Assembly (NCBI GenBank): GCA_943372215.1 | Contig: CALRXU020000022.1 | Location: 1,975 to 65,974 of the forward strand | Direction: 5' to 3' | Source: Chitinophaga pinensis | GTDB lineage: Bacteria > Bacteroidota > Bacteroidia > UKL13-3 | Length of the DNA stretch: 64,000 nucleotides | Shown here: one piece after another, positions 20,848 through 53,555 of the stretch | Layout of the letters: every line of letters begins with the position of its first letter | Position numbering within the stretch: position 1 is the stretch's first letter | Program-made: the position numbers and the translations under genes | Notes under the pieces: model-generated | The model's input: only the letters and a program-made list of their open reading frames with translations | What the model was told of the DNA's origin: nothing | Database searches by the model: none

Positions 20848-23379
20848 TTAATCACAATGATTACTTGCTCCTGTTGAGCAACATCCTTTACCTTCTTTGT
20901 GTGAAGTCACACATTTATCATCACAACTTTTTTCGCATTCTTCAGCAGTTTTGCAGCCTTTATCACAGTTTTCTTTATCTGCTCCACCCATCTTTTTGCT
21001 GCACATTTCTTTGCATTTGGCTTCGTCAAATTTGCCATCTGCTCCGTACATGCTTAAGCAAGTAGCTTTTTGTTCAGCATCACATCCAACACTATCGCAA
21101 TAGGCCGCACATTCTTCCTTGGTCATTGTTTTGCAACGGTCCATATCACATTTGCCCATGTCCATATCGCATTCACTCATTTCTGCGCAGCACGACATTT
21201 TTTCGCCATGTTGTAAAGCGGCTTTGTCTGATTTTAATCCGCCTTGCACAGCAATGTAAGGTGCTATTACCAACGAAACAATTGACATTAACTTAATCAA
21301 AATGTTCATTGAAGGTCCTGAGGTATCTTTAAATGGATCACCAACAGTATCACCCGTTACAGAAGCTTTATGCGGTTCAGATTTTTTGTAGAACATTTCG
21401 CCATTAATCAATACCCCTTTTTCAAATGATTTTTTAGCGTTATCCCAAGCCCCACCAGCATTGCTTTGGAAAATACCCATTAACACTCCACTTACAGTAA
21501 CACCAGCTAACAACCCTCCTAACATTTCAGCAGAACTGGCATCCGTAAAAATTCCTTTGAAACCAAAACCAACAATAATTGGGGTTAACAAGGCAATTGC
21601 ACCTGGTAACATCATTTCACGAATAGAAGCCTTGGTTGAAATGGCCACACATTTTTCGTACTCTGGTTTTGCTTTATATTCCATAATACCTGGAATTTCG
21701 CGGAATTGACGTCTAACTTCTTGCACCATATCCATCGCTGCTTTTCCAACTGCCTGAATACATAATGCTGAGAATATAAAAGGAATCATTCCTCCAACAA
21801 ATAATGCAGCAAGTACCGGAGCCTTATAAATATCAATCGCATCAATTCCTGCAACGCCAACAAATGCGGCAAACAGGGCCAATGAGGTTAATGCTGCCGA
21901 AGCAATGGCAAATCCTTTTCCAGTAGCGGCAGTGGTATTACCAACGGCATCTAAATTATCTGTTCTCTCACGAACTTCAGGCGGCAACTGGCTCATTTCA
22001 GCAATACCACCAGCATTATCAGCAATAGGGCCAAAAGCATCAATAGCCAACTGCATAGCAGTGGTTGCCATCATACCGGCAGCAGCAATAGCCACACCAT
22101 ATAAACCAGCAAAATAATAAGAGGCCATGATACCTGCAGCAAGGGTTAAAATCGGAATGACAGTTGATTTCATACCCACTGATAAACCACCAATAATGTT
22201 GGTAGCATGTCCGGTTGATGATTGTTGGATGATTGATAAAACAGGGGCTTTACCCATAGCTGTGTAATATTCAGTAACAATACTCATAATGGCACCTACA
22301 ATAGTACCTACTACAATTGCCCAGAAAACATTAATGCTTGAGAACTCATATCCACGTAAGTTTAACGTTTCAGGCAACATCCATTTTACAATAAAGAAAG
22401 AAGCCACCACTGTTAATAACATTGACGACCAATTGCCAAGGTTTAACGCGTTTTGCACGTTTGATTTATCATCCTTAATGGTAACAAACCAAGTGCCCAC
22501 AATAGAGAAAAGGATGCCTAAGCCGCAAATTACCATTGGCAATAAAATGGGTGACATGCCACCAAAGTTATCGGTAACTACAATTTCTTGTCCAAGTACC
22601 ATTGTTGCCAATATGGTAGCCACGTATGAGCCAAATAAATCGGCACCCATACCAGCCACATCACCTACGTTATCACCTACGTTATCGGCAATAGTAGCAG
22701 GGTTACGCACATCATCTTCAGGAATACCAGCCTCTACCTTACCTACTAAGTCAGCTCCAACATCGGCAGCTTTGGTGTAAATACCACCACCTACACGCGC
22801 AAAAAGGGCAATAGATTCAGCGCCTAATGAGAAGCCTGTTAGCACTTCAATGGCAGTTCTCATTTCATCACTATCAACTGTAACAACATTAAAGTATTTT
22901 AAAAATACAATAAACAAACCACCTAATCCTAAAACGGCCAATCCTGCAACACCCAATCCCATTACAGTACCACCAGTAAAAGATACTTTTAATGCTTGTT
23001 TTAAACTGGTACGGGCAGCTTGAGTAGTACGCACGTTGGCTTTGGTAGCCACTTTCATTCCAATATAACCAGCGGTTGCTGAAAAAACAGCACCTATGAT
23101 AAAGGAAATAGAGATAATCCAGCTAGAGTGAATTACTTTTCCGTTTACTTCATGAATGGTTCCTGAATAGGCCAATAAAGCGGCAGCAAAAGCAACAAAT
23201 ATGCTCAATACTTTCCATTCAGCTTTTAAAAATGCCATTGCTCCATCTGCAATATAGCCAGCCAATTCAGTCATTTTAGCATCGCCAGCATCTTGTTTCG
23301 ATACCCAGGCACTTTTAATGGCCATGACCAACAGGCCTACAATACCAAGCGCGGGGATTAAGTAAATTACATTTTCCAT
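20848..23379 (-). CDS. hppA: Membrane-bound ion-translocating pyrophosphatase (K+-dependent type) with a C-terminal Cys-rich extension
   Basis: 843-aa ORF with [31 protein letters not shown] (an Ala at this position indicates the K+-dependent class) and [14 protein letters not shown]. Confidence 0.95.
20851..21198 (-). other. 116-aa cysteine-rich C-terminal tail of HppA (19 Cys, many CxxxC)
   Basis: [40 protein letters not shown]...[39 protein letters not shown] is in frame with the pump, with no intervening stop. Confidence 0.8.
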
Positions 23380-26752: not shown

Positions 26753-28942
26753 ATGTTTTTTAGGGCCATTTTATTTTCTGTTTTGTTAGCCATTAGCTTG
26801 TCGCCAGTTTTGGCACAAGTGTCGTTTCCCAACACATTACAGGCCCAGCAAACCACTGAAAAAATAACCCTAGATGGACAACTGAACGAACCCGTTTGGC
26901 AAAATGCAGTTAAAATCAGCAACTTCACCCAACGCGAGTTAAACTTTGGAGAGCCCTCAACCGAGCGTACAGAGGTTGCAATAGCTTACAACCGACAATA
27001 CCTTTACATCGCTGTTTGGTGTTATGATACCATGCCAGATAATTTAATAGCCAAAGAGCTGAGGCGCGATTTTAACTACGATATTGACGATAATTTTATT
27101 GTGATTATTGATACCTATAAAGACCAACGCAATGGATTTATGTTTGTTACCAATCCCAATGGAGCAAGGGCCGATTTGCAAGTGTTTAATAATGGAGGCT
27201 CAACCAATGCGTTTTGGAATGGCGTTTGGAATGTTAAAACTACCGTAACATCCAAAGGTTGGTTTGCTGAGTTTGAAATTCCATTTTACACCTTGAAGTA
27301 CCGCACGGGTTTAAGCGACCAAGAGTGGGGCATTAATTTTGAGCGCAACATCAGGCATAAACGGGAGCAAGTTCTTTGGCAGGGGTGGAGCAGAAATAAC
27401 CGCATACAACAAGTCAATCAAGCAGGTGTCCTTGCTGGGTTAAAAGACCTCACCGACAAAAAATTTGTGGAAATTAAGCCTTACGCCATTGGCGGTGGTG
27501 AACGAGTGCAAAGCAATTCAACCAAAAGCGGGTATACTAACAATCCAGTACAAAATGGAGGAGGAGATATCAATTATTTACTTTCGCCCACCTACAGGTT
27601 AAACGTAACAGTTAATACGGATTTTGCGCAGGTAGAAGCAGATCAACAGCAGGTAAACATCACGCGTTTTCCATTGTTTTTTCCTGAGTTGCGGGAGTTC
27701 TTTTTAGAAGGGGAAGATTTTTTTAACATGGGCTTTGGAGGGAATAGGGTTATTCCGTTTTACACCCGTAAAATTGGGTTAGATGAAAATAGGGAACCTG
27801 TGCCAATTCTTGCCGGAGCGCGTTTGTTAGGCAAGGAGAAAAACAGCACACTAGGACTAATGACCTTGCAAACAGGTGATTTGGAAAACTCTAATATAGG
27901 AACCAATTACAGCGCAGCCAGTTGGCGACAGGATGTGGGCAAACAAAGTGTGATGGGGGCGATGCTTACTAACAAATACCTCAACGGAGACTTTTATACC
28001 ACAGCAGGTGTAAATGGCCGATTCAGTACGGCTAAATTTTTTAAAAATAAAAACCTGGATATAGGTGGGGCAATTATTAAAACGTATCGAACAAATGAAG
28101 CTTACCAACCGGAGGCCTTTGCTTATCGAGCGTTTGTTAGTTACCCAAATGATAAGTTTAGCTTGTTTGCTTCCACCCAACGAAGCCCTAAGGAATTTAA
28201 CCCGGAAATTGGCCTTTTGCTGAGGAGTAATTTTATTGAATCTTTTGCCGAGTTTGCTTATAAACCACGCCCTAAAAAAAGATTCAAGTGGATTAGACAG
28301 TTTGAGTTTGCCCCCCTAAGTTTTACCAATGCCCAATATGATGATACCCGCAACTTACAGTCCTTTGAATACCGGATACAGTACTTTGGTTTGGAAACCA
28401 GAAAGGGTGAGCGGTTTACCATGGATTACCGCATTGTAGCAGAAGGACTCATTAATGATTTTAGCATTGGTGAAGGCATTGTTATTCCCAAAGGAGAGTA
28501 TTGGTGGCGGCAGACGGCCACTGAAATTCGCACTTTCAGGGGGCGCACATTGTCTTTAGCGAGCCGTTTGGTATGGGGAGAGTTTTACAAAGGAACCACC
28601 ACACAATTGCGGTCGGAACTTTTTTGGAGAGCAGGTAAATTTTTTAATGTGAATTTACGCTATGAGTTAAACGATATTAACTTGCCGCAAGGAAATTTGA
28701 GAACGGATTTAATAGGCAGTAGGGTCGAATACGCCATCAACCCAAATGTATTTGGTTCTGTACTTAGCCAATGGAACAGTGCGCAGGAGCAAATGAGTTT
28801 TAACTTCAGGTTGCAAATTATACCACGCATAGGAACTGATTTCTTTTTTATTGTGAACCAAATTTACGATACCCAAGGCAATGCATTTACCATGACTAGG
28901 ACCACCATTTTGGGGAAACTCGTATGGCGATTCACCATTTAA
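26753..28942 (+). CDS. Secreted protein with a CBM9-like N-domain and a DUF5916-like region
   Basis: 729-aa ORF with a signal peptide. The ITLDGQLNEPVWQNAVKISNFTQ pattern is typical of this family. Confidence 0.55.
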   Translation: MFFRAILFSVLLAISLSPVLAQVSFPNTLQAQQTTEKITLDGQLNEPVWQNAVKISNFTQRELNFGEPSTERTEVAIAYNRQYLYIAVWCYDTMPDNLIAKELRRDFNYDIDDNFIVIIDTYKDQRNGFMFVTNPNGARADLQVFNNGGSTNAFWNGVWNVKTTVTSKGWFAEFEIPFYTLKYRTGLSDQEWGINFERNIRHKREQVLWQGWSRNNRIQQVNQAGVLAGLKDLTDKKFVEIKPYAIGGGERVQSNSTKSGYTNNPVQNGGGDINYLLSPTYRLNVTVNTDFAQVEADQQQVNITRFPLFFPELREFFLEGEDFFNMGFGGNRVIPFYTRKIGLDENREPVPILAGARLLGKEKNSTLGLMTLQTGDLENSNIGTNYSAASWRQDVGKQSVMGAMLTNKYLNGDFYTTAGVNGRFSTAKFFKNKNLDIGGAIIKTYRTNEAYQPEAFAYRAFVSYPNDKFSLFASTQRSPKEFNPEIGLLLRSNFIESFAEFAYKPRPKKRFKWIRQFEFAPLSFTNAQYDDTRNLQSFEYRIQYFGLETRKGERFTMDYRIVAEGLINDFSIGEGIVIPKGEYWWRQTATEIRTFRGRTLSLASRLVWGEFYKGTTTQLRSELFWRAGKFFNVNLRYELNDINLPQGNLRTDLIGSRVEYAINPNVFGSVLSQWNSAQEQMSFNFRLQIIPRIGTDFFFIVNQIYDTQGNAFTMTRTTILGKLVWRFTI

Positions 28943-31029
28943 TCAATCACCAACATTTTTTTGGTGGCTGTTACACCATCTTCAGTAACCACTATCCAGT
29001 AAACTCCGGTAGTTAATCCATCTAAAGCTAAGGTAATTTGTTGTGTAAAGGTGCCTGTTTGCACCGTTTTGCCTAACAAGTTTATCATGGCATAACTGGC
29101 CTGAATAGGAGACGTTTTAGTTAAAGTAACCTCCCTTTGAGCTGGGTTGGGATACACTTCAAACGATATTCGTTGTATAGTATTACGGTTTAATCCTGTT
29201 GGTGTTTCTGCCCTGCGAATGCAAGCCTTCCAGGTGTTTTTTCTCAAGCCATCTTCAGATGTAACTGTCCAAGTATATTGCATCGGTGCAAGAGCAATTT
29301 TTTTAAGCAATGGGATATTGCTTGTTGCCCCTGACGAAATTTGATAAGAAAGAATGGCCGAATCCGTATTAGACTGAGAGGGAATAACAAAATAAAAAGT
29401 ACGGTTTTCATAGTCTAAAATGGTGCTATCCGCATAGGCAATATCCAATGCTGCAAACCAACTGTCAGCATTGCCCAGCTTCACCCCATTGGCATTTGCC
29501 GCACCTAATGCTAATATCTCAGCATCATTCATTACATAATCACGCGTTTGTAAACAACTTAAATACATATCAGCCGTTTCATTATCATCATCAGAGAAAA
29601 TTAAAAAGCCCTGTGTATTTCCGCTTCTGGAATTGTTCCAAATGGCCCAGCGACTGTCGGTGCTTATTTCACTTGCTCCAATGTAAAAACCATTGATATA
29701 TTTTTTTAGTAATCCAGCTTTACAATCCACCGTGAAGGCAATTCTTGTCCAAAGGTTTGCTGTTATTTTGCCATGATAGTCGCCTGCAATGCCGAGTTGA
29801 CCGCTGCGGTTAATAAACAGTTCCGCATCATTGGCGTTGGTAATGCTGGTTTGAAACAATGAAATCCATTTACCAAATGATGAATCTGGCATCAGAATAT
29901 CCATGATGATGGTAAAACTGCGATCTAAAATTCCATAATCTTCAACCCTAGAATTGTTGTAAACCATTAACCCATTTTCTGGGCGCAAAGCGGGTAATTT
30001 CATCACTACCTTGTCTTCGCCACTTATGTTGGGGATATTAAACGAACTGCATGTGCCAAATACTGGGATCTGATCAGCGGGAGGGTTTACATGATTTAAG
30101 GTACGCAATTGAGAACCTACTCCGGTACTGAATAAATTGCCTTCAAAATGCCAGTTACCTACCGTAGCAGAATCAAAAGGAGTACCCGCAGGTAAGTTAT
30201 TACAAACTTGTTTTTTAGCTTCCCAGGCTCGGTCACTTTCAAGCCCGTCAGCTCCGTTATTCAAGGCTTCTTGTATTTGAGCCGGGTCGTTTAGTGTAAA
30301 AACAATAACCTTTCCCCCAACTTGGTGTACATTTTTGGTAAAGGTGGTCCATCCGCTATCCGCCATCCTACCACTGGATACTTCAAAAGCAAAACATCCC
30401 AGGTTTACACATTGCTGATAGAAGTTAATGTCATTAACATCTATGGGTAAGCGGCCTGCCTGATACCAAATCCAAGGGGTATTGGGCAGTTGTTGCCTGA
30501 AATTAGTAGCATTTTCAATAGTAGCAATAGCTGGTAAAAAACGATTGGGTGCAACACCGCTTGATACCAATGCATTTTTTAATGCAGTAACTGTGTAAGA
30601 TTTTAAATCAAGATATAAATAGGCATCATATTTTTGGGCTACTACTAGGGCTTCGGATAAACTCGGGATTTTAATGCCATTAAAGTGGTTTCCTTTCCAC
30701 GAGCCTGTTTCCCATTGTTTAACCTCAACTAGGTTGTAGTTGCTTAATTTGCCATTCGCGTTTGTGGTTCGGTGTACTGAACTCTCATCATGAAACAATA
30801 CGGCATGTCCATCTTTGGTTAACGAAATATCCACCTCTGCATATTTTACACCCCTTTTAAAAAGTTCTTCTAAGCATAATAAAGAGTTTTCAGGGTAAAC
30901 GGAGGAATAGCCCCGATGCCCGAAGGCCAAAAAGCTGCAAGTGTCAAAATCAACAACAACCTTTGGACACTGAGCCAAGGAATGAGTTGATAAACCTAGA
31001 AGTAAAACGATGTATAAAGCTATGCGCAT
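28939..31029 (-). CDS. Glycerophosphodiester phosphodiesterase-domain protein with a LamG-like middle region and a T9SS C-terminal sorting domain
   Basis: 696-aa ORF with the GDPD motifs FGHRGYSSVYPENS and EVDISLTKDGHAVLFHD. The C-terminus VYPNPAQREVTL...GVYWIVVTEDGVTATKKMLV is a T9SS CTD pattern. Confidence 0.8.
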   Translation of the reverse strand: MRIALYIVLLLGLSTHSLAQCPKVVVDFDTCSFLAFGHRGYSSVYPENSLLCLEELFKRGVKYAEVDISLTKDGHAVLFHDESSVHRTTNANGKLSNYNLVEVKQWETGSWKGNHFNGIKIPSLSEALVVAQKYDAYLYLDLKSYTVTALKNALVSSGVAPNRFLPAIATIENATNFRQQLPNTPWIWYQAGRLPIDVNDINFYQQCVNLGCFAFEVSSGRMADSGWTTFTKNVHQVGGKVIVFTLNDPAQIQEALNNGADGLESDRAWEAKKQVCNNLPAGTPFDSATVGNWHFEGNLFSTGVGSQLRTLNHVNPPADQIPVFGTCSSFNIPNISGEDKVVMKLPALRPENGLMVYNNSRVEDYGILDRSFTIIMDILMPDSSFGKWISLFQTSITNANDAELFINRSGQLGIAGDYHGKITANLWTRIAFTVDCKAGLLKKYINGFYIGASEISTDSRWAIWNNSRSGNTQGFLIFSDDDNETADMYLSCLQTRDYVMNDAEILALGAANANGVKLGNADSWFAALDIAYADSTILDYENRTFYFVIPSQSNTDSAILSYQISSGATSNIPLLKKIALAPMQYTWTVTSEDGLRKNTWKACIRRAETPTGLNRNTIQRISFEVYPNPAQREVTLTKTSPIQASYAMINLLGKTVQTGTFTQQITLALDGLTTGVYWIVVTEDGVTATKKMLVID

Positions 31030-31152: not shown

Positions 31153-31929
31153 ATGAACAACAATAGGCCGCTTATTCTAGTAAGCAACGATGATGGCATT
31201 ACAGCTCCAGGAATTAGAAGTTTGGTGGATGCTATAAAACACTTGGGAGAGGTGGTGATAGTGGCCCCGGATAGTCCGCAGAGCGCTATGGGGCATGCTG
31301 TTACCATTAGCAAACCGTTGCGTTTAGATAAAACAGATATTTACGGAGACATATTGGCTTACCAGTGCAGCGGCACTCCAGCTGACTGTGTAAAGTTAGC
31401 CGTTGACAAAGTATTGCATCGCAAACCTGACTTAATGGTTTCAGGCATTAATCATGGTAGCAATTCCAGTATTAATATTTTATACAGTGGCACCATGAGT
31501 GCTGCTATGGAAGCTGCCATTGAAGGCATACCTGCAGTTGGATTTAGTTTGTGCGATTTTGCTTATGATGCCGACTTTAGTTTGGCCAAAAAAATTGCCA
31601 CCCGCATAGCAGGAAATATCCTTAGCAATGGATTGCCTGCCGCCACTTTGCTCAACGTAAACATTCCCAAAGTGAGTGAAGCTGATTTTATGGGAGTTCG
31701 CGTTTGCAGGCAGGCAGTGGCTAAGTGGAAGGAAGAGTTTGACGAGCGTTTAGACCCCAATGGAAGAAAATATTTTTGGCTTACTGGTAAATTTGTAAAC
31801 AACGATAAAGGTGATGATACCGATGAATGGGCGCTGGCCAATAACTATGCAAGTGTTGTCCCAGTTCAATTTGACCTAACAGCTCATTACGCCATGCCCA
31901 GTTTAAACAGTTGGGAATATACGATTTAA
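31153..31929 (+). CDS. surE: 5'/3'-nucleotidase SurE
   Basis: 258-aa ORF with ILVSNDDGITAPGI, SGINHGSN and YSGTMSAAMEA. Confidence 0.95.
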   Translation: MNNNRPLILVSNDDGITAPGIRSLVDAIKHLGEVVIVAPDSPQSAMGHAVTISKPLRLDKTDIYGDILAYQCSGTPADCVKLAVDKVLHRKPDLMVSGINHGSNSSINILYSGTMSAAMEAAIEGIPAVGFSLCDFAYDADFSLAKKIATRIAGNILSNGLPAATLLNVNIPKVSEADFMGVRVCRQAVAKWKEEFDERLDPNGRKYFWLTGKFVNNDKGDDTDEWALANNYASVVPVQFDLTAHYAMPSLNSWEYTI

Positions 31930-42063: not shown

Positions 42064-42459
42064 TTAGTGGTGGTCTTCTACTGGAGGAGGGGAAGTATTT
42101 GCTGGAGCAGCCGTTTTCTTGCGGTACGTTAAAAATACCATAATCTGCGCCAACTCCTCAGCCGAAACCCGTTCTTCGCTCATTTCTGTTTCATGTTTGG
42201 TATTGGCTACCCGTACTTTGTACACCTCCAATTGGGCATCTGTAAAAGTAGGTATAACCTCGCGGCCAAATTTTTTGGTGGTATGGCATTTTGCACAATT
42301 TAGGTTGTACAGTTCTCTGCCTTTTTCCCATTGTTTAATATAATCTGCTTTAACATGGGCTAACATTTCAGAGGGAAACTCGTAGGTAATCTTAGGGGGA
42401 AGTTTGCAAGCCGTGGCTGCAATACATACTAAAAGAATAAAAAAAGTAAGTCTATACAT
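42064..42459 (-). CDS. Small c-type cytochrome (lipoprotein)
   Basis: 131-aa ORF with the lipobox ATAC and a single heme-binding CAKCH. It lies 6 nt downstream of the peroxidase gene. Confidence 0.75.
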   Translation of the reverse strand: MYRLTFFILLVCIAATACKLPPKITYEFPSEMLAHVKADYIKQWEKGRELYNLNCAKCHTTKKFGREVIPTFTDAQLEVYKVRVANTKHETEMSEERVSAEELAQIMVFLTYRKKTAAPANTSPPPVEDHH

Positions 42460-44417: not shown

Positions 44418-44450
44418 CATAAAAACGGAAGGCTTTAGCAAGCCTCCCGT
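44418..44450 (-). terminator. Rho-independent terminator downstream of the giant gene
   Basis: The minus strand reads ACGGGAGGCTT-GCTA-AAGCCTTCCGT (11 bp including one G-U) followed by TTTTT. Confidence 0.6.
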
Positions 44451-44477
44451 TTTGAGTTTGAAATGTATTACCAACTG

Positions 44478-47400
44478 TTAGTGCATTACGACTAATTTGA
44501 TGGTGTTTGATTTGTTACCTGATGTTAAATGAATAAAGTAAACCCCATTTTGCAGTCCTGCCGTAGGAAGTTCCAAATTATTTTCACCTGCTACCAAACT
44601 TTTAGTAACACTTGCTATTGCTTCTTTGCCTTGAATATCAACAACGTTAACCGTTACTTCTTCTTGTTGGCTTAGAAGCAAGGTTAAAGTGGTGTTATCA
44701 GAAGTTGGATTAGGGAACAATTTAACAAATGAACTAAGTTGATTAGCATTATTTAAGCCTACTTTACGAGTAGCCTCACCTTTTAAACTAAAGGTAAATG
44801 TACCTTCATTTTCATCAGAGTTAACAATAGATATAGTAGCAGTTCTGTTTCCTTCAGCCAATGGTGCAAATTGAACACTAATTGTTTGTGATGCATTAGG
44901 AGCAATGTTCCAAGGTAATGTTGGTGTGTTTACCAAAGTAAACTCACTTGCATTTGTTCCTGTAAAGTTAATTGCACTTACCTGTAAGCTATCAGAGCCG
45001 GTGTTTCTTACAGTAAAGGCGTTGGTACGTTTAGCATCCTTTTCAATTGCACCAAAGTCAGTGTTATCAGCAACGGTTGGGGTAACATCACCAGAAGCAA
45101 TGTCGTTGTTGTCACCAATTACTACAATTTCCTCCTCAAGCGAGTTACCTTGCAATGCAAAACTGTAAGCAGGCTCATCAAGGTCATTGCTTCCGATGTT
45201 AATTGTACCTGAACGAACACCTGCACTTGTTGGGGTGAATTTAACTGTCATGCTGGCCGAACCATTAGGAAGAATGGCTAATGGGAATGTAGGAGCCGCA
45301 ACCAATGTAAATTCACTTGCATTTGTACCTGTGAAGCTAGCACCAGTAATACTTAAGGTATCGTTACCAATATTTTGAACAACAAACTCACGGTTAATAG
45401 AACCATTTTTACTTACGCTACCAAAGTTAGTAAAGTCTACAGTGCTTGGTGTGTTATCACCATTTGATATGTTGGTATTGTTACCTTGAATATTTATCTC
45501 AGGAGTGATAGCGGTAGCCTGTATGCTAAAGTCATATGGATTTTCATCAGCATCATTGCTTGCAATATTCACAGTAGCTGAACGTAAGCCAAAAGCAATT
45601 GGCGTGCACCTTACTGTTATGCTTCTGTTAGTTCCAGGAGCAATAACCATTGGGAAAGAGTTAGTTCCAGTTAAAGCAAACTCTGTGTTTTGAGCACCAG
45701 TAAATGTAATACCTGTAACTCTTAACGAATCAGACCCTATATTTTGAATACTAAATGCACGTGAGGCATTGCTGCTTAAATCAATGGTTCCAAAGTCAGT
45801 ATTATCATTTGTTGCAGGAGTAACATCTCCGTCTGCTACATTATTACCATTACCTTGGATGTTGATGTCAGCAGGGCTAACCGTTCCTCTTAATGCGTAA
45901 GTGAATGTTCCTTCATCAAAATCATTGGTATTTAACTGGATATTTGCTGAACGAGTACCTGAACCAAGTGCTATAAATCTCACAACAATGTTTTGTGTGC
46001 CATTTGCAGGGATTGATATTGGGAAGGTTAATGAACTGTTCAATGCAAAGTCTGCTGCATTTGCTCCAGTAAAGCTAATTCCTCTTAAAGTTAAGCTACC
46101 TGGTCCAGCATTTCTGATGCTGTAAGTTCTGGTTCTGCTTGTTCCTACAACAGAGCTTCCAAAATCAGTACTATCTGATACCAATGGTGTGACATCGTTA
46201 TTAGGAATTTCAACAGCACCACCAAATACACTAACCTCAGGATTTGAGTTGGCTGTTTCAGCGCTGTACAATTTTAAAATTTGTCCACCTTCAACCAAAT
46301 CACCAGGCAAAGTATAATGAGCTTGGTCAACCATTAAGAAATTACCAGCACCTAAAATGTCTTGCACATCAATAATACCTGAAGCCTCTTCATCAATAGT
46401 TAAGAAGTTAGGCGCACCAGTAATAAATCTGGTTGAATCATGGTAGGCAAGAACCCTTAATTGGTCAGTAGCGGTTGTGTACTCCCAAACTTTACCAATG
46501 TGAATGTTGTTTCCAACATCTTCTTGAATAAGCAGATGTCCAAAATTGTCAAAACCGATGTTATCCATCATTTTCGGGCCTTCAGTGCCATCTAACACGG
46601 CTGTAATTGTACCACCAGTAGTTGGGTTTTTGATGTCGTTAAAACGCAACCTCCACAAACGGCTTGGAGCAGTAAATGCATTGGTAGTTACAAAGTAAAA
46701 ATCATTTGGACTAGCTGGATCCCATGCACCATCTTCAGGACGTAAGAAATTAGTTACACCTAAGTTGTTGCTACGGGTATTTAAGGCAGCACCAGATGAA
46801 TCTCTTACATTGCCTAAATCAACCATAGTAAATGCAGTATTAGGAGTTGGGAAGCTGCCAGAAACCTCAGTAGTTAAACCAGCTACAGCCACACCATACA
46901 ATTTACCATTGGTTAAACCAGCTCTGTCAACCTCAGTTCCAGTATTGGTTTTAGTGCCAACATACATGTAAACCTGTCCAGGAGTGGCATCATCAGTGCC
47001 AGCCACAACGGTTAAGTTACCAGAAGCAGGGGTAGCAACTGCATTTTCCCAAGAGAATTTACCTAAGCCAGGTAACTCATAAGAAGTACCTGCATTAACG
47101 CCAGTTGCAATGTGTCCGAAAGCACGGCCTTCAGTTCCATTTTCTTCGCCATTCATAAAAATACGCTCTTGAGTGCCCAAACCAGTAACAGGGTTGTAAA
47201 ACGCATTTATAGGAGGCAAATCAGCAGAACAAAAACGACCAAACGCTTTTTTGCTGGTAGTATCTGCTGGGTTAAATAAAGTATATCCAACACCAGGAGT
47301 ATATAAGTTAACTTTAGAAATTAAATCAGCACCTGAAATAACTGCTAAGCTTTTTTTATCAATCATCCACTTAGAAACAAAAGCACCTCTCGCACCATGC

Positions 47401-50400
47401 GCACGAATACCACCAACAGTATTACCCAACTCATGATTTACCAAAAGTGTAAATGTTCCATTGCCATTATCATAAGCACCAGCACCATCAGGAATACCAA
47501 CCATTTTATAACCATTGCTTGTGCTATCGCCAACGGTAATAATAGCGGTGGTTTTAACACCAGGAGCAGCAGGAACGATGTAAGGTGTTTGCGTGCTGCT
47601 TGGTCCGGCACCAGCAAAAGCGTTGGCAGTTTTTGGATTAAATAACCTCAAAATTTGCCCGCCTTCAACCAAATCACCAGGCAAAGCATAATGAGCTTGG
47701 TCAACCATTAAGAAGTTACCAGCACCTAAAATGTCTTGCACATCAATAATACCTGAAGCCTCTTCATCAATAGTTAAAAAGTTAGGCGCACCAGCAATAA
47801 ACCTTGTTGAGTCGTGGTAAGCAATTACCGTAAGTTGATCTAAAGCCGTATTGTATTGCCATATTTTACCAATATGAGCGTTGCTTCCAACATCTTCTTG
47901 AATTAATAAGTTTCCAAAATTATCAAAGCCGATGTTATCCATCATTTTAGGACCTTCAGTTCCATCCAATACAGCTGTAATTGTACCACCAGTAGTTGGG
48001 TTTTTGATGTCGTTAAAACGCAATCTCCATAAACGGCTTGGCGCAGTAAATGCATTGGTGGTTACAAAGTAAAAGTCATTTGGACTAGCAGGATCCCAAG
48101 CACCATCTTCTGGACGTAAGAAATTAGTTACACCAAGCGAATTGCTGCGGGTATTTAAAGCAGCACCAGTTGAATCTTTTACATTGCCCAAATCAACTAA
48201 AGTAAATGCAGTATTAGGAGTTGGGAAGCTGCCAGAAACCTCAGTAGTTAATCCAGCTACAGCCACACCATACAATTTACCATTGGTTAAACCAGCCCTA
48301 TCAACCTCAGTTCCAGTATTGGTTTTAGTACCAATATACATGTAAACTTGTCCAGGAGTGGCATCATCTGTTCCTGCCACAACGGTTAAGTTACCAGAAG
48401 CAGGGGTAGCCACTGCATTTTCCCATGAGAATTTACCTAAGCCAGGTAACTCATAAGAAGTACCTGCATTAACGCCAGTAGCAATGTGTCCGAAAGCACG
48501 GCCTTCAGCACCAATCTCTTCACCATTCATAAAAATGCGCTCTTGCGTACCCAAGCCAGTAGCCGGGTTAAAAAATGCATTTACAGGAGGTAAATCTGCA
48601 GAGCAAAAACGGCCAAACGCTTTTTTGCTGGTAGTATCTGCTGGGTTAAATAAAGTATAACCAATACCAGGAGTATATAAGTTAACTTTAGAAATTAAAT
48701 CAGAACCAGAAACAACGGATAAGTTACTTTTGTTAATTACCCATTTAGAAACAAATGCACCTTTAGCACCATGAGCACGAACTCCGCCAGCAGTGCTGCC
48801 TAACTCATGATTTACCAAAAGGGTAAATGTTCCATTGCCATTGTCATAAGCACCAGCACCATCAGGGATACCAACCATTTTATAACCAGTACTTGTGCTA
48901 TCGCCAACGGTGATAATCGCATCAATATCTACACCAGCAGTAGCAGGTAATAAATATGGAGATTGTGAGCTATTTGGTCCAGCACCAGCAAAAGCATTAG
49001 CCGTTGTTGGGTTAAACATGCTTAAAATTTGTCCACCTTCAACCAAATCTCCAGCTATAGCATAATGAGCCTGATCAACCATTAAGAAGTTACCAGCACC
49101 TAGAATATCTTGCACGTCAATAATACCTGAACCTTCTTCATCAATGGTTAAGAAGTTAGGTGCACCTGTAACAAATCTGCTAGAATCATGTGATGCAATT
49201 AAAGTTAGTTTATCCAAAATGGTATTGTATTGCCAGGTTTTACCAAGATGAGCATTGCTTCCAACATCTTCTTGAATTAATAAGTTTCCAAAGTTATCAA
49301 AACCAATGTTATCCATCATTTTAGGTCCTTCAGTACCATCCAATACCGCATTAATTGTACCACCAGCAGTTGGGTTTTTGATGTCGTTAAAACGTAATCT
49401 CCACAAGCGGCTTGGTGCAGTAAAGGCATTTGTAGTTACAAAGTAAAAATCATTTGGATTAGCAGGATCCCATGCACCGTCTTCAGGGCGTAAGAAGTTT
49501 GTTACTCCTAACGTATTACTTCTGGTGTTTAAGGCAGCACCACTAGAGTCTCTTACATTGCCTAAATCCAATAAGAAGAATTGGGTGTTCGGGAAAGGCA
49601 AACTGGTTGATGACTCAGCAGTCAAACCATTTACAGCTACACCATACAATTTGCCATTGGTTAAACCAGCTCTGTCAACCTCAGTTCCAGTATTGGTTTT
49701 AGTGCCAATATATATGTAAACCTGTCCAGGTGTAGCATCATCTGTGCCAGCCACAACAGTTAAGTTACCAGAAGCAGGGGTAGCAACTGCATTTTCCCAA
49801 GAGAATTTACCTAAGCCAGGTAACTCATAAGTAGTACCTGCATTAACGCCAGTTGCAATGTGTCCGAAAGCACGGCCTTCAGTTCCATTTTCTTCACCAT
49901 TCATAAAAATACGCTCTTGAGTGCCCAAACCAGTAACAGGGTTGTAAAACGCATTTATAGGAGGTAAATCTGCAGAGCAAAAACGGCCAAACGCTTTTTT
50001 GCTGGTAGTATCTGCTGGGTTAAATAAAGTATAACCAACACCAGGAGTATATAAGTTAACTTTAGAAATTAAATCAGAACCAGAAACAACGGATAAGTTA
50101 CTTTTGTTAATTACCCATTTAGAAACAAACGCACCTTTAGCACCATGAGCACGAACTCCGCCAGCAGTGCTGCCTAACTCGTGGTTTACCAAAAGTGTAA
50201 ATGTTCCGTTGCCATTGTCATAAGCACCAGCACCATCAGGGATACCAGCCATTTTATAACCTGTGCTTGTGCTATCACCAACTGTAATAATTGAAGTTAA
50301 GGTAACTCCAGGTTGCGCGGGTAGTAAGTATGGTGTTTGTGATGAACTTAAACCTGTTTGACCTTGAGACAAGGTAGGAGCAATTGGTCTTCTGTAATTT

Positions 50401-51728
50401 GCCAATTTATCAGCACCACTTAAACGGTAAGTTACAAGATGGCTGGTAAGGTTTGTGGCTACAGGAATTCCGTCAGCCAATGAAGAGCTTTGCCCATAGT
50501 CATTGTCGTTACATATAGCAATGGTACTGTCATTAATAATGGCTAAACCTTCTGCTTTGTCGTAAGCCGCAGGCCAAGCATTGGCCAATAAATCCATTTC
50601 TAATGTTTTTCTTACAGCTTTAATACCAAATCCAGCAAGTCCTGTTGAGTCAGCTAGAGCCTCTAAAGTGCTTGTGCCACCATATAAACCAGAGTTGACA
50701 GCAGTAGCTCCATTTATATTAATCATGTACAAACGTTTAAAGTCACTGGTTCCGCGAGCTGCAGCTTCCAATACTAAAAAAGTACTATCATTAATGGCAG
50801 CCATATCACCAATTTTCCAATCTTGCGGGCGAATTTGATTTCCGCCAGAAGCTCCAATAGTACCATCATTAATATAAACCAACATGCGTGTTACATTGGT
50901 TGCAGGATCAATCTCTAAAATGCGGTGTATACGAGAAGTTGCAGCAACTGCTGAACTTGGATAGTATATAGGACTTTGAATAGCGGCATAAATTTTACCA
51001 TTTGGGGCCATAGCAATACCTTCAAAACCACGGTTGTTTCTGCGGTACTTAAATGCGGTGTCGATAGCAACGTCAACTGATTGTAGTCCAGATAAATTTG
51101 CATAAGGAGTATAACGGGTTAATAAAACACCATTAGGGCTTACTTTCCAAATGGTTGGCCCACCTTCTTCACAAAGCCAGAAATTTCCGTCTTTATCTAA
51201 AATAATACCTTCGGCATCAATACCAAAAGTATCTTTAGGGGTAGTTTTTAAGTTGAAATTAGCACAATCTTGTACCGTATCAGTTGATGCTACTTCAGTG
51301 GCAGTACTACCTAATCCAGTAGGGTTAATAATACCAGAAGCAACAGTGCCATTAGGACGCTTAATAGTAATTGTTTGTAAAATTTGAATAGAGTTACCAA
51401 TAACCCTAATGCGATGGATTTTTGGTGCATAAGATGGGAATGCATACATCTTGTCGTAAGTTGGTCGGCAAGCTGGTAAGTTGGCATTTGCACAATCAAC
51501 ATTTACACCCCTGTCAGAGCAAACCCAAAACTCTGTTCCATTGGTGCCCGCAATTGGGTACAGCCCAGAAAAACCTGCTTCACGGAAATTCACCCCTTTG
51601 TAGGTTCCAATAGCAGGGGAGTTGGTGTTTTCGTAGTCAACTAATTTGTTAATTTGGGCATTGCTTTCTGCTTGGGAGAGTAGGAGAAAACAAAAGCCGA
51701 GAAAGGCTCGAGTCAAATTTTTTGTCAT
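44478..51728 (-). CDS. 2416-aa secreted multidomain protein: phytase-like domain + 3x PhoX/DUF839-like modules + 4x choice-of-anchor-D-like repeats + T9SS sorting domain
   Basis: Single uninterrupted ORF with the signal peptide MTKNLTRAFLGFCFLLLSQAESNAQ. See the sub-features for each domain. Confidence 0.9.
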   Translation of the reverse strand: MTKNLTRAFLGFCFLLLSQAESNAQINKLVDYENTNSPAIGTYKGVNFREAGFSGLYPIAGTNGTEFWVCSDRGVNVDCANANLPACRPTYDKMYAFPSYAPKIHRIRVIGNSIQILQTITIKRPNGTVASGIINPTGLGSTATEVASTDTVQDCANFNLKTTPKDTFGIDAEGIILDKDGNFWLCEEGGPTIWKVSPNGVLLTRYTPYANLSGLQSVDVAIDTAFKYRRNNRGFEGIAMAPNGKIYAAIQSPIYYPSSAVAATSRIHRILEIDPATNVTRMLVYINDGTIGASGGNQIRPQDWKIGDMAAINDSTFLVLEAAARGTSDFKRLYMININGATAVNSGLYGGTSTLEALADSTGLAGFGIKAVRKTLEMDLLANAWPAAYDKAEGLAIINDSTIAICNDNDYGQSSSLADGIPVATNLTSHLVTYRLSGADKLANYRRPIAPTLSQGQTGLSSSQTPYLLPAQPGVTLTSIITVGDSTSTGYKMAGIPDGAGAYDNGNGTFTLLVNHELGSTAGGVRAHGAKGAFVSKWVINKSNLSVVSGSDLISKVNLYTPGVGYTLFNPADTTSKKAFGRFCSADLPPINAFYNPVTGLGTQERIFMNGEENGTEGRAFGHIATGVNAGTTYELPGLGKFSWENAVATPASGNLTVVAGTDDATPGQVYIYIGTKTNTGTEVDRAGLTNGKLYGVAVNGLTAESSTSLPFPNTQFFLLDLGNVRDSSGAALNTRSNTLGVTNFLRPEDGAWDPANPNDFYFVTTNAFTAPSRLWRLRFNDIKNPTAGGTINAVLDGTEGPKMMDNIGFDNFGNLLIQEDVGSNAHLGKTWQYNTILDKLTLIASHDSSRFVTGAPNFLTIDEEGSGIIDVQDILGAGNFLMVDQAHYAIAGDLVEGGQILSMFNPTTANAFAGAGPNSSQSPYLLPATAGVDIDAIITVGDSTSTGYKMVGIPDGAGAYDNGNGTFTLLVNHELGSTAGGVRAHGAKGAFVSKWVINKSNLSVVSGSDLISKVNLYTPGIGYTLFNPADTTSKKAFGRFCSADLPPVNAFFNPATGLGTQERIFMNGEEIGAEGRAFGHIATGVNAGTSYELPGLGKFSWENAVATPASGNLTVVAGTDDATPGQVYMYIGTKTNTGTEVDRAGLTNGKLYGVAVAGLTTEVSGSFPTPNTAFTLVDLGNVKDSTGAALNTRSNSLGVTNFLRPEDGAWDPASPNDFYFVTTNAFTAPSRLWRLRFNDIKNPTTGGTITAVLDGTEGPKMMDNIGFDNFGNLLIQEDVGSNAHIGKIWQYNTALDQLTVIAYHDSTRFIAGAPNFLTIDEEASGIIDVQDILGAGNFLMVDQAHYALPGDLVEGGQILRLFNPKTANAFAGAGPSSTQTPYIVPAAPGVKTTAIITVGDSTSNGYKMVGIPDGAGAYDNGNGTFTLLVNHELGNTVGGIRAHGARGAFVSKWMIDKKSLAVISGADLISKVNLYTPGVGYTLFNPADTTSKKAFGRFCSADLPPINAFYNPVTGLGTQERIFMNGEENGTEGRAFGHIATGVNAGTSYELPGLGKFSWENAVATPASGNLTVVAGTDDATPGQVYMYVGTKTNTGTEVDRAGLTNGKLYGVAVAGLTTEVSGSFPTPNTAFTMVDLGNVRDSSGAALNTRSNNLGVTNFLRPEDGAWDPASPNDFYFVTTNAFTAPSRLWRLRFNDIKNPTTGGTITAVLDGTEGPKMMDNIGFDNFGHLLIQEDVGNNIHIGKVWEYTTATDQLRVLAYHDSTRFITGAPNFLTIDEEASGIIDVQDILGAGNFLMVDQAHYTLPGDLVEGGQILKLYSAETANSNPEVSVFGGAVEIPNNDVTPLVSDSTDFGSSVVGTSRTRTYSIRNAGPGSLTLRGISFTGANAADFALNSSLTFPISIPANGTQNIVVRFIALGSGTRSANIQLNTNDFDEGTFTYALRGTVSPADINIQGNGNNVADGDVTPATNDNTDFGTIDLSSNASRAFSIQNIGSDSLRVTGITFTGAQNTEFALTGTNSFPMVIAPGTNRSITVRCTPIAFGLRSATVNIASNDADENPYDFSIQATAITPEINIQGNNTNISNGDNTPSTVDFTNFGSVSKNGSINREFVVQNIGNDTLSITGASFTGTNASEFTLVAAPTFPLAILPNGSASMTVKFTPTSAGVRSGTINIGSNDLDEPAYSFALQGNSLEEEIVVIGDNNDIASGDVTPTVADNTDFGAIEKDAKRTNAFTVRNTGSDSLQVSAINFTGTNASEFTLVNTPTLPWNIAPNASQTISVQFAPLAEGNRTATISIVNSDENEGTFTFSLKGEATRKVGLNNANQLSSFVKLFPNPTSDNTTLTLLLSQQEEVTVNVVDIQGKEAIASVTKSLVAGENNLELPTAGLQNGVYFIHLTSGNKSNTIKLVVMH
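44481..44771 (-). other. T9SS (Por) C-terminal sorting domain of the giant protein
   Basis: KLFPNPTSDNTTLTLL...VNVVDIQGKE...LQNGVYFIHLTSGNKSNTIKLVVMH. Confidence 0.8.
44772..46238 (-). repeat. Four tandem units of 120-123 aa, Ig-like (choice-of-anchor-D-like)
   Basis: Units are at 44772-45140, 45141-45509, 45510-45878 and 45879-46238. Each has DFG...(R/Q)N(T/I/A)G...L.(V/I/L)..I.FTG.NA.(E/D)F.L......(I/M)AP......(V/I)...F.P...G.R.A...I.SND..E. Confidence 0.75.
46239..50348 (-). repeat. Three tandem 1374-bp (458-aa) near-identical units encoding PhoX/DUF839-like modules
   Basis: Unit boundaries are about 46239-47600, 47601-48974 and 48975-50348, fixed from the aligned (S/N)S(S/T)Q(T/S)PY starts. 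Each unit has GIPDGAGAYDNGNGTFTLLVNHEL, FGRFCSADL, MNGEE..EGRAFGH, FLRPEDGAWDP and IQEDVG. DNA identity between units is roughly 90% by eye. Confidence 0.85.
50349..51650 (-). other. N-terminal phytase-like (esterase-like activity of phytase) beta-propeller region of the giant protein
   Basis: FSGLYPIAG...FWVCSDRG, GIDAEGIILDKDGNFWLCEEG, NNRGFEGIAMAPNGKIYAAIQSP and KAEGLAIINDSTIAICNDND. Confidence 0.65.
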
Positions 51729-51927
51729 AACATTATTGTTTGCGACAAAGCAAGTAGAGCCATGTTGTCAAAACATCTATAATGAGTTAATAAAAGGTTA
51801 GCGAATAATTATGTAAATAAGAAGTGCGGACCAAATTACCCCCTCAGTTAACAAGGTGTAAATAACCGATGCTTATGGGAAAATCAGGTGGGAAAGCAGC
51901 AATTAAAAGGTAAAAAAGTAAAGAAGA

Positions 51928-52416
51928 TTAGTTTAATGCTGCTGAGCTGTCTTGTTGCAAGTGCCGTTTTGAAGCCTTTGCCCAATTCACCAATAGCAAC
52001 ATCTGAGCATCATTAAGCGTGGCATTTTTATGAAGAAGCGTATAAGAACCCAGCGGCATTTCACCAGATTCAACCATCTCAACTACTTCATCCAGCTTAT
52101 GCAATTGACGTTTCTTTTTATAAGAAGCAAACTCACTAAAGTTTAACTCACTTTTGCCTTCTTCTACATGATGATTCAACCAAAAACCAACAGGTTGGAT
52201 TCGGCTATACCAAGGATAAACAGTTGCATTACTGTGGCAATCATTGCAACTGGCAACTAACAGTTGCTTCACTTCGGGAGAAACAGGTACACAATTGGTA
52301 ATGTCTTGTTCACCAAAAGTACTCCCATTATTTTGGGTCATCGGTATAAACTGAATAAGCACCAATAAGATGATGAATACTATTCCAATTTGCAACACTC
52401 TTTTTTTTCTAAACAT
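51928..52416 (-). CDS. Heme-binding-domain (Haem_bd-like) membrane-anchored protein
   Basis: 162-aa ORF with one N-terminal TM, then CNDCHSN...YPWYSRIQPVGFWLNHHVEEGKSELNFSEF. Confidence 0.7.
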   Translation of the reverse strand: MFRKKRVLQIGIVFIILLVLIQFIPMTQNNGSTFGEQDITNCVPVSPEVKQLLVASCNDCHSNATVYPWYSRIQPVGFWLNHHVEEGKSELNFSEFASYKKKRQLHKLDEVVEMVESGEMPLGSYTLLHKNATLNDAQMLLLVNWAKASKRHLQQDSSAALN

Positions 52417-52496
52417 ATCAGATAGAACTTTATAACAACTGCAATTTCAACTTAATAAAGGTAATAATTGTAATTGTACCAATTTTAATATTAAAA

Positions 52497-53555
52497 CTAC
52501 TCCGCCTTAGCACCATTAGATACCAAGCACAAATTACTCACTTTATACAATAACCTTGCACCAACATTGGCATCCCATTCATCATTGCCTGGAGCTATTT
52601 CATTAATATCAAAAGCAATAATTTGTTTTTTTGCCGCTACCACTTGGCTTATTAAATAAACCAATTGTTCAAACTCAAAACCTCCTGGAACAGGCGTGCC
52701 GGTATTGGGGCATAATTTGGGGTCCAGCCCATCAATATCAATGCTTAAATAAATTTTATCAGGCAAAGATGCCACGATGTTGGCACATATTTTTTGCCAC
52801 GATTTGCCTTCATATTGCAACTGCTTTATATCACTATCAAAAAAGGTAGTTACTTTTTCGTTGGTATCAATAAGGTTTTTTTCATCTTCACAATAATCAC
52901 GAATACCAACTTGCACCAAGTTTGAGACCTGCTCAATTTTTAAAGCATTAAACATAATGGAGGCATGCGAAAATTCAAATCCTTCATAGGCATCCCGCAA
53001 ATCTGCATGTGCATCAATTTGTAAAATTCCAAACGATTCATGCTTTTCTGCAATGGCTTGAATTAATCCTAACGGAGTACTGTGATCACCACCTAGTAAA
53101 GCCACTACTTTCCCTTTATTAATTTGCTGCAATGCTTGCTTTTTAACCCATTTATTCAAGTCTTTACAGCCATCGTTCACTTCTTTTCTAATAGCTTTCA
53201 TTTCTTGGTTTTTGCCTGCATTTTTTCCTTCTGCATACAAATCAATATATCGTGTAGCCTTTTTACGAAGTTTATTGCTGGTTGCTTTAAGCTTTTTATT
53301 AACGGGTAACATAGCAATTCCAAGCTTCCAAGCATCTGCAATAATTGGGTCATACAAATCAACTTGATAAGATGCATCGTAAACAGCTTCTGGGCCTTTT
53401 GCAGTTCCACCACTGTAAGATACGGTAACCTCCCATGGAACAGGAACAATGACTAGTGAAGCTTCCTCAGGGGTGAATGGTAAGCCGAATATATTGTTGT
53501 CGGCATTTCCAATGTCATTTGGATTAAATGCAGCTATTTTTCCTTGTTTGTTCAT
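52497..53555 (-). CDS. Ureohydrolase (agmatinase / arginase / formimidoylglutamase) family protein
   Basis: 352-aa ORF with the Mn-site motifs LLGGDHS, QIDAHADLRD and SIDIDGLDP. Confidence 0.85.
   Translation of the reverse strand: MNKQGKIAAFNPNDIGNADNNIFGLPFTPEEASLVIVPVPWEVTVSYSGGTAKGPEAVYDASYQVDLYDPIIADAWKLGIAMLPVNKKLKATSNKLRKKATRYIDLYAEGKNAGKNQEMKAIRKEVNDGCKDLNKWVKKQALQQINKGKVVALLGGDHSTPLGLIQAIAEKHESFGILQIDAHADLRDAYEGFEFSHASIMFNALKIEQVSNLVQVGIRDYCEDEKNLIDTNEKVTTFFDSDIKQLQYEGKSWQKICANIVASLPDKIYLSIDIDGLDPKLCPNTGTPVPGGFEFEQLVYLISQVVAAKKQIIAFDINEIAPGNDEWDANVGARLLYKVSNLCLVSNGAKAE

Follow-up and report, generated by a model that had tools for sequence, protein, structure and literature searches.

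In a 64,000-nt stretch of DNA from Chitinophaga pinensis (Genome Taxonomy Database lineage Bacteria; Bacteroidota; Bacteroidia; UKL13-3; assembly GCA_943372215.1, contig CALRXU020000022.1, positions 1,975 to 65,974 of the forward strand), hereafter the window, we analyzed a giant gene whose product joins one phytase-like and three PhoX-like beta-propellers in a single chain, followed by four immunoglobulin (Ig)-like units and a C-terminal sorting domain (CTD) for secretion by the type IX system (T9SS). Our preferred reading, which we hold at a probability of roughly two in three (0.68), is that the protein is a T9SS-secreted, multi-catalytic organophosphate hydrolase, and that its PhoX-like heads are matured in the periplasm by a peroxidase and a cytochrome c encoded next to it. 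The gene is a single unbroken open reading frame (ORF) of 2416 codons with an ATG start on the minus strand at 44478–51728. A preliminary description made from the DNA letters had recognized this ORF, without its strand, and had proposed the phytase-like region, three PhoX/DUF839 modules, four choice-of-anchor-D units, and T9SS domain; it had overlooked the peroxidase and cytochrome c context. We scored the domains with Pfam and NCBIfam profile hidden Markov models, both on the whole protein and on single domains, and all of these domain calls were verified. The phrase "four phosphatase-type propellers" used in that description is right as architecture, with one PF13449 and three PF05787 propellers.

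The repeated 458-residue module is PhoX-like in fold and candidate residues

A single module scores 43.8 bits against the PhoX profile PF05787 (cut-off 24, E = 2.7e-11), and the profile matches three stretches of the whole protein. The AlphaFold model of module 2, made with 30 homologues, has a predicted local distance difference test score (pLDDT) of 88 and a predicted template modelling score (pTM) of 0.90. When this model is compared with solved structures by Foldseek, the best matches are Pseudomonas fluorescens PhoX (3zwu, E = 8.6e-16; 4a9v, E = 1.2e-15) with template modelling (TM) scores of 0.66–0.68, and the remaining propellers follow at 5.7e-6 or worse, ten orders of magnitude behind PhoX. 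The structural comparison with P. fluorescens PhoX that the preliminary description called for has thus come out in favor of its domain call, and the possibilities it had raised, that the unit is not PhoX-like or lacks the metal-binding residues, are contradicted by the fold and by the candidate residues below, insofar as alignments can show it.

The metal center of P. fluorescens PhoX contains Fe3+ and Ca2+ held by a cysteine and acidic residues. For the residue comparison, canonical PhoX genes were retrieved from plasmids by a PhoX motif, and via these the sequence of the 3zwu chain was recovered. Its numbering is consistent with C179, the active-site cysteine. It is also consistent with D292 and R385 (PMC11098088). 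Aligning the module family with canonical PhoX by hhalign gave a probability of 83% and E = 9e-6 over the central part, and residue pairs outside that part come from extended hhalign and MAFFT E-INS-i alignments. In this correspondence (module residue first), C130 pairs with C179, E191 with E273, D209/D210 with D291/D292, R293 with R385, E295 with E387, D352 with D479, D367 with D494, E411 with E532, S413 with T534, and Q432/H434 with Q550/H551. Every one of these residues is present in each of the three window heads. Across 129 modules, taken from the window and 80 loci, they are invariant except for D209 (128/129) and S413 (126 Ser, 3 Thr), and the NGEE motif (E158/E159) is invariant in the compared modules as well. 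The earlier suggestion that all three heads could be catalytically competent is therefore upheld as far as the candidate residues go, and competence probably depends in addition on a maturation partner.

The three heads are diverged copies

The motifs PDG..NHE, FCSADL, NGEE, EGRAFGH, and RPEDGAWDP, which the preliminary description had listed for all three modules, each occur three times at a spacing of exactly 458 residues. Pairwise, the modules are 85–89% identical in amino acids and 84–88% in nucleotides, and the longest exact run that they have in common is 90 nt. Synonymous divergence (dS) between heads is 0.43–0.52 with a nonsynonymous-to-synonymous ratio (dN/dS) of 0.14–0.20, the differences being mostly synonymous. 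From these comparisons we read the heads as diverged copies under purifying selection and not as a collapsed or expanded assembly repeat. Tandem Repeats Finder reports nothing on the gene because the 1374-nt period exceeds its limit.

Nucleotide identity between modules (46245–50366) is a mosaic, in which stretches of 97–99% alternate with stretches of 71–77% and the most-alike pair of modules changes from segment to segment. This pattern suggests occasional gene-conversion tracts between the heads. The heads of the window are closest to one another, at 85–89% compared with 80% or less to any other module, and in two other three-module lineages the heads are likewise nearest to one another. 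Since the heads are mutually closest, either head number has changed repeatedly or the heads are being homogenized. For the window, the relationships indicate a triplication that is lineage-specific, by tandem amplification within the lineage, or one that has been homogenized.

One related Logan contig (L088, SRR20005816, 2472 nt) aligns to window positions 50259–52732 at 89% DNA identity and carries the haem-binding-domain (Haem_bd) gene and then the start of the giant gene, where its gene call is split into 410 and 74 residues. It seems that assemblies from short reads are interrupted by the repeated heads, and multi-headed genes are probably undercounted.

Relatives of the module are numerous and often multi-headed

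A word-indexed search gave 5955 module matches among the 8000 candidates scored, and its top matches were single-module proteins of 570–715 residues with one Ig unit and a CTD. An exhaustive search gave 2295 clusters at 50% identity, with three modules in P0121 and P0122, four in P0126, and two in many others. Scanning species-representative genomes, we obtained the 79 nearest loci, the best of them 80% identical to the query module; 41 of their ORFs have one module, 33 have two, and 5 have three. The survey of module number that had been proposed thus finds one-, two-, and three-module versions, and the rarity that the preliminary description implied is not borne out, as Bacteroidota metagenome-assembled genomes (MAGs) often carry versions with two, three, or four modules.

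The building blocks around the heads recur too. A phytase-like propeller stands in front of the heads in 54 of the 64 complete ORFs among the genome loci, and L031 and L033 share the window layout (phytase-like, three PhoX-like modules, Ig, and CTD; 2027 residues). The nearest relative, L009, combines a phytase-like propeller with a 5′-nucleotidase, two PhoX-like modules, a SusE-like domain, and a CTD, and other relatives add metallophosphoesterase or choice-of-anchor-I domains to the module. The organophosphate scavenging suggested in the preliminary description fits these fusions, which are consistent with, and independent support for, a putative organophosphate-hydrolyzing role.

The module also occurs outside Bacteroidota, as three-module ORFs in two Chlorobiota-labelled MAGs (L064, L070) and as single modules in cyanobacteria (L083, Pseudanabaena; L004, Pannus brasiliensis), and none of these four loci has an adjacent peroxidase gene. 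Several MAG records with this T9SS-type gene bear implausible organism names (L011, L012, L038, L041, L050, L052, and others), for example uncultured Bifidobacterium, Bordetella parapertussis, Actinomyces viscosus, and Vulcanococcus limneticus, and two module matches (P0068, P0296) come from a eukaryote protein set. The odd-named records and the eukaryote matches are likely mislabelling or contamination.

A di-haem peroxidase and a cytochrome c gene lie downstream

The gene that follows the giant gene, 86 bp downstream, encodes a di-haem peroxidase with CxxCH motifs at residues 338 and 488, and a mono-haem cytochrome c gene starts 6 bp after it. The first 300 or so residues of the peroxidase (residues 1–300) form an N-terminal extension with no Pfam match. 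The signal of the protein is lipoprotein-like (…VAIGC), and the full length of about 640 residues is kept in relatives (641, 642). The nearest solved relatives are bacterial cytochrome c peroxidases (CCPs; 4aal, E = 6e-25), followed by MbnH and MauG. The protein keeps the CCP-type PYMH motif and is closer to true peroxidases than to MauG, and it stays under the NCBIfam cut-offs for both MauG (TIGR03791, 137 bits vs. 444) and MbnH (TIGR04039, 157 vs. 363). By its PF03150 match and these cut-offs we assign it to the di-haem CCP/MauG superfamily, and to neither the MauG nor the MbnH family.

This arrangement recurs among relatives. In 29 of the 55 informative genome loci, meaning those with enough downstream sequence, a peroxidase homologue lies directly downstream (median gap 104 bp), and a cytochrome c gene follows the peroxidase in 28 of the 31 genome loci with a peroxidase gene, as well as in L003 and L005. 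Both genes lie downstream in L009, L031, and L033, and the pair also stands behind the phosphatase gene in Polluticoccus soli and on a 3.7-Mb MAG contig. The order of a PhoX-like gene and then a MauG/CCP-like gene is seen in L001, L002, L003, and L005. On plasmids of Fulvitalea and Hymenobacter, a lipoprotein-type PhoX of 27% identity has a cytochrome c peroxidase as its next annotated neighbor.

Protein layout, phytase-like propeller, and other features

The features of the gene and its neighborhood are collected in Table 1. By eye, the signal of the protein is of the non-lipoprotein type and its N-terminus, MTKNLTRAFLGF, holds no twin-arginine (RR) motif, unlike canonical PhoX from Azospirillum and Rhizobium, whose sequences contain RR motifs. 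The choice-of-anchor-D model NF012200 scores 253.9 bits (cut-off 45) in four stretches, PF22544 likewise matches in four stretches, and the period of the Ig units read off the sequence is 122–123 residues; in profile searches these units match choice-of-anchor D and HYDIN-like domains. The sorting domain is recognized at residues 2337–2414 by TIGR04183 (51 bits, cut-off 23) and by PF18962, Por_Secre_tail (50 bits, cut-off 27).

Table 1. Features of the giant gene and the adjoining genes in the window
Feature	Residues	Window position	Strand	Basis
Signal peptide, predicted Sec-type, MTKNLTRAFLGFCFLLLSQAESNAQ	1–25	51654..51728	-	translation inspected by eye
Phytase-like (PF13449) beta-propeller	27–454	50367..51650	-	Pfam match, AlphaFold model
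PhoX-like module 1	455–912	48993..50366	-	458-aa motif period, PF05787, candidate catalytic residues
PhoX-like module 2 (modelled unit)	913–1370	47619..48992	-	PF05787, AlphaFold, Foldseek, hhalign
PhoX-like module 3	1371–1828	46245..47618	-	motif period, PF05787, candidate catalytic residues
Four choice-of-anchor-D Ig-like units	~1829–1951, 1952–2073, 2074–2196, 2197–2319	44772..46244	-	NF012200, PF22544
Type-A T9SS C-terminal sorting domain	2337–2416	44481..44720	-	TIGR04183, PF18962
Terminator-like hairpin, 14-bp stem and T-rich tail		44422..44453	-	consensus scan and sequence
Di-haem cytochrome c peroxidase/MauG-like gene, 641 aa		42466..44391	-	PF03150, E = 1.6e-36
Mono-haem cytochrome c gene, 131 aa, CxxCH at residue 55		42064..42459	-	PF13442/PF00034
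Haem-binding-domain (PF14376) gene, 199 bp upstream		51928..52416	-	PF14376, E = 2e-45

The N-terminal propeller matches PF13449 at residues 52–411 of the whole protein (E = 8e-43) and, when scored by itself, over profile positions 5–284 of 284 (E = 5e-44), and the AlphaFold model of residues 27–454 is a propeller with a pLDDT of 84 and a pTM of 0.88. Foldseek matches this model to generic six-bladed propellers alone (DFPase, PON1, NHL), with TM scores of 0.36 or less, and no beta-propeller phytase structure is in its top 50 matches. The beta-propeller phytase profile PF02333 is absent from the Pfam matches at E up to 1, and because it gives no match we reject a canonical beta-propeller phytase identity for residues 27–454. 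A very common form of the phytase-like domain is a stand-alone T9SS cargo of about 540 residues.

The PF14376 gene upstream also occurs in the 89%-identical L088, yet of the 79 more distant loci just 2 have it, which makes its membership doubtful and a place in the core of the system improbable. A direct repeat upstream of the giant gene, TTATTTACA, was considered as a promoter candidate and rejected, with 3 matches in the window compared with 2.6 expected. Elsewhere the window encodes a second T9SS-sorted putative organophosphate enzyme of 696 residues at 28939–31029 on the minus strand, with a glycerophosphodiester phosphodiesterase domain (GDPD, PF03009) and Por_Secre_tail. It also encodes SurE (5′/3′-nucleotidase family) at 31153–31929 and an H+-pyrophosphatase at 20848–23379.

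Comparison with known systems

P. fluorescens PhoX (3zwu/4a9v; PF05787, COG3211) is a six-bladed propeller and the best structural match of the module, which lies above the PF05787 threshold and aligns its conserved residues to the PhoX active-site motifs. Unlike that enzyme, the module is only 13% identical to it, is about 120 residues shorter, and is without its N-terminal part and several loops. The window chain also differs from it in holding three copies together with a phytase-like propeller, Ig units, and a T9SS domain, and the gene is genetically linked to a di-haem peroxidase. Export differs from canonical PhoX in that, by eye, the signal is of the Sec rather than the twin-arginine translocation (Tat) type.

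A described precedent is the Flavobacterium johnsoniae pair of a PhoX-like protein, Fjoh_2478, and a MauG-like protein, Fjoh_2477, whose genes both belong to the set with the strongest induction on phosphate depletion (PMC8115612). Fjoh_2478 keeps 9 of 10 PhoX active-site residues (PMC8115612), and a phoX mutant of F. johnsoniae loses 33% of the inducible phosphatase activity (bioRxiv 10.1101/719427). Lidbury et al. found the F. johnsoniae PhoX-like protein inactive when expressed alone in Pseudomonas and tentatively put this down to the absent MauG-like partner (PMC8812569), and a 2026 review lists the enzyme as one that "may require cofactor" (PMC13211072). The experimental support for a PhoX-like/MauG-like pairing stems from these two genes. 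Like the window system, this is a Bacteroidota, Sec-exported, weakly PF05787-like protein followed by a MauG/CCP-like di-haem gene. Unlike it, Fjoh_2478 is an outer-membrane lipoprotein with one module and no T9SS CTD, whereas the type-A CTD of the window protein comes with a signal that is not of the lipoprotein type.

The single-module T9SS "DUF839/choice-of-anchor D" proteins of Chitinophagales and other Bacteroidota have the module at 60–69% identity, the same Ig unit and CTD, and a downstream peroxidase and cytochrome c. These proteins of 570–715 residues have one head and one Ig unit and no phytase-like propeller. The multi-module relatives from MAGs (L031, L033, L009, P0126) are assembled from the same building blocks, arranged in the same order, L031 differing in its one Ig unit in place of four. 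By its description, Psip1 of marine picocyanobacteria (PMC11098088) is similar in being a phosphatase dependent on Fe/Ca, with a propeller and active-site residues like those of PhoX at very low sequence similarity to it, and different in being single-domain with no Pfam or CDD match. The P-limitation stimulon of Nodularia includes both PF13449 and DUF839 genes (PMC9846622). In the literature that we searched, we found no paper on T9SS-sorted or multi-headed PhoX-like proteins.

Proposed mechanism

The architecture, fold similarity, residue conservation, synteny, and divergence of the copies come directly from our comparisons, while phosphatase activity, metal content, the part played by the peroxidase, and a surface or released location are inferences. 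We propose that the Sec signal carries the chain into the periplasm, where the four propellers would fold and the three PhoX-like heads would acquire a PhoX-type metal center. The type-A CTD would then direct the folded protein out through the T9SS, to be tethered at the surface or released, with the four Ig units holding the catalytic heads at a distance from the membrane-proximal end. The likely gain from triplication would be more active sites per secreted molecule, in addition to a second esterase-type propeller of the phytase-like family. Maturation of the PhoX-like heads in the periplasm is probably the task of the di-haem peroxidase and cytochrome c, which could act by oxidation of Fe2+ to Fe3+ during cofactor assembly or by an oxidative modification. 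Such a system may compensate for export in the unfolded state by Sec, as opposed to the Tat export of canonical PhoX. A further step, which we consider possible but put at well under even odds, is that Bacteroidota Sec/T9SS PhoX-like proteins are unable to self-assemble the Fe3+/Ca2+ center, and that the dedicated peroxidase and cytochrome c oxidize the iron or modify each propeller.

Several points weigh against our preferred reading, the first being the 13% identity to solved PhoX. The PF05787 match spans profile positions 231–452 of 515, which is under half of its length, and the module has no match among the NCBIfam models. No PhoX came back from sequence searches of the PDB, whether the query was the full-length protein, a single module, the profile of the family, or an intermediate of 27% identity, and the PhoX link is therefore taken from the fold search and the profile–profile alignment. 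The NGEE motif probably corresponds to the CEEN motif of PhoX (E158/E159 to E193/E194) by motif and strand order, while hhalign and MAFFT align these residues otherwise and hhalign restricted to the N-terminal half does not align the two motifs to each other. Among the candidate metal-binding residues of PhoX, D292 and R385 are the ones confirmed (PMC11098088). The comparison of Fjoh_2478 with the window module was made by description, and the lipoprotein-type relatives that were compared are about 27% identical to it. There is no adjacent peroxidase in 24 of the 55 informative relatives or in one cyanobacterial homologue. A strong terminator-like hairpin lies just behind the stop codon of the giant gene and ahead of the peroxidase gene, and because it separates them their co-transcription is uncertain; they may form two transcription units or be subject to attenuation. 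Finally, no Pho-regulon gene or recognizable Pho box adjoins the giant gene.

Alternative explanations

The alternative that survives best, although we regard it as unlikely, is that the propellers are not phosphatases and form, with their haem neighbors, an extracellular redox or metal-handling system, for example one whose cofactor derives from the protein itself (compare MauG/MADH and MbnH/MbnP), or a surface protein that binds or oxidizes iron. The three immediate neighbors are all haem proteins, the best partial NCBIfam matches of the peroxidase are MbnH and MauG, and both of these families are known to make protein-derived cofactors. The low identity to PhoX, the missing Pho genes nearby, and the F. 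johnsoniae protein that showed no phosphatase activity in a heterologous host (PMC8812569) point the same way. Against this, the residues aligned to the PhoX active-site motifs are invariant as a set, and the recurrent fusion partners are phosphoesterases and not redox domains. The peroxidase keeps the PYMH motif and is nearer to true peroxidases than to MauG, and in F. johnsoniae the mutant loses part of the phosphatase activity and the pair is induced by phosphate starvation (10.1101/719427; PMC8115612).

More improbable still, in our view, is a reading in which the heads bind without catalyzing and the chain serves mainly as a large T9SS-exported adhesin or part of a surface layer. Propellers, Ig repeats, and a CTD are a common combination in Bacteroidota surface proteins, propeller and Ig domains are typical of adhesins, the Ig units have their profile matches among choice-of-anchor D and HYDIN-like domains, and the N-terminal propeller has no specific solved homologue. 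Inert modules are hard to reconcile with candidate catalytic residues that, one excepted, do not vary across the 129 modules and are all retained in the window heads, with a dN/dS of 0.14–0.20 between heads, or with the frequent use of the module as a short single-domain secreted protein of 570–715 residues.

It is very improbable that the three modules result from misassembly of a true gene with one or two, a doubt that the preliminary description had itself raised. In favor of this doubt, 1.4-kb tandem repeats are error-prone in short-read assemblies, L088 stops about 110 nt into the first module, and the exact protein has no record in a public collection. Against it, the copies differ at 12–16% of nucleotides (84–88% identity) with a dS of ~0.5 and a longest identical run of 90 nt, the frame is intact over both module junctions, and two or three modules occur in independent genomes, two of them with the window layout.

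Significance

What was known is the PhoX-like/MauG-like pair in Flavobacterium; what we met in no paper searched is the multi-headed T9SS architecture, which is common in uncultured relatives, and the present loci extend the association well beyond Flavobacterium. PhoX is a marker gene for organic-phosphorus mineralization, and this Bacteroidota clade matches the standard models weakly. If the clade is shown to be widespread, estimates of the carriers of extracellular phosphatase in lakes and soils would change. In this under-recognized phosphatase clade, head amplification (two to four per chain) and fusion to phosphoesterases are common.

The conserved peroxidase and cytochrome c partner is a concrete possible explanation for the Flavobacterium enzyme that is inactive when expressed alone. 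If assembly does depend on the peroxidase, the maturation of metalloenzymes would gain a new, haem-dependent class, and the multi-headed proteins would be substrates that are matured three or four times per chain. Such dependence would also account for an abundant family that resists heterologous expression and functional metagenomics.

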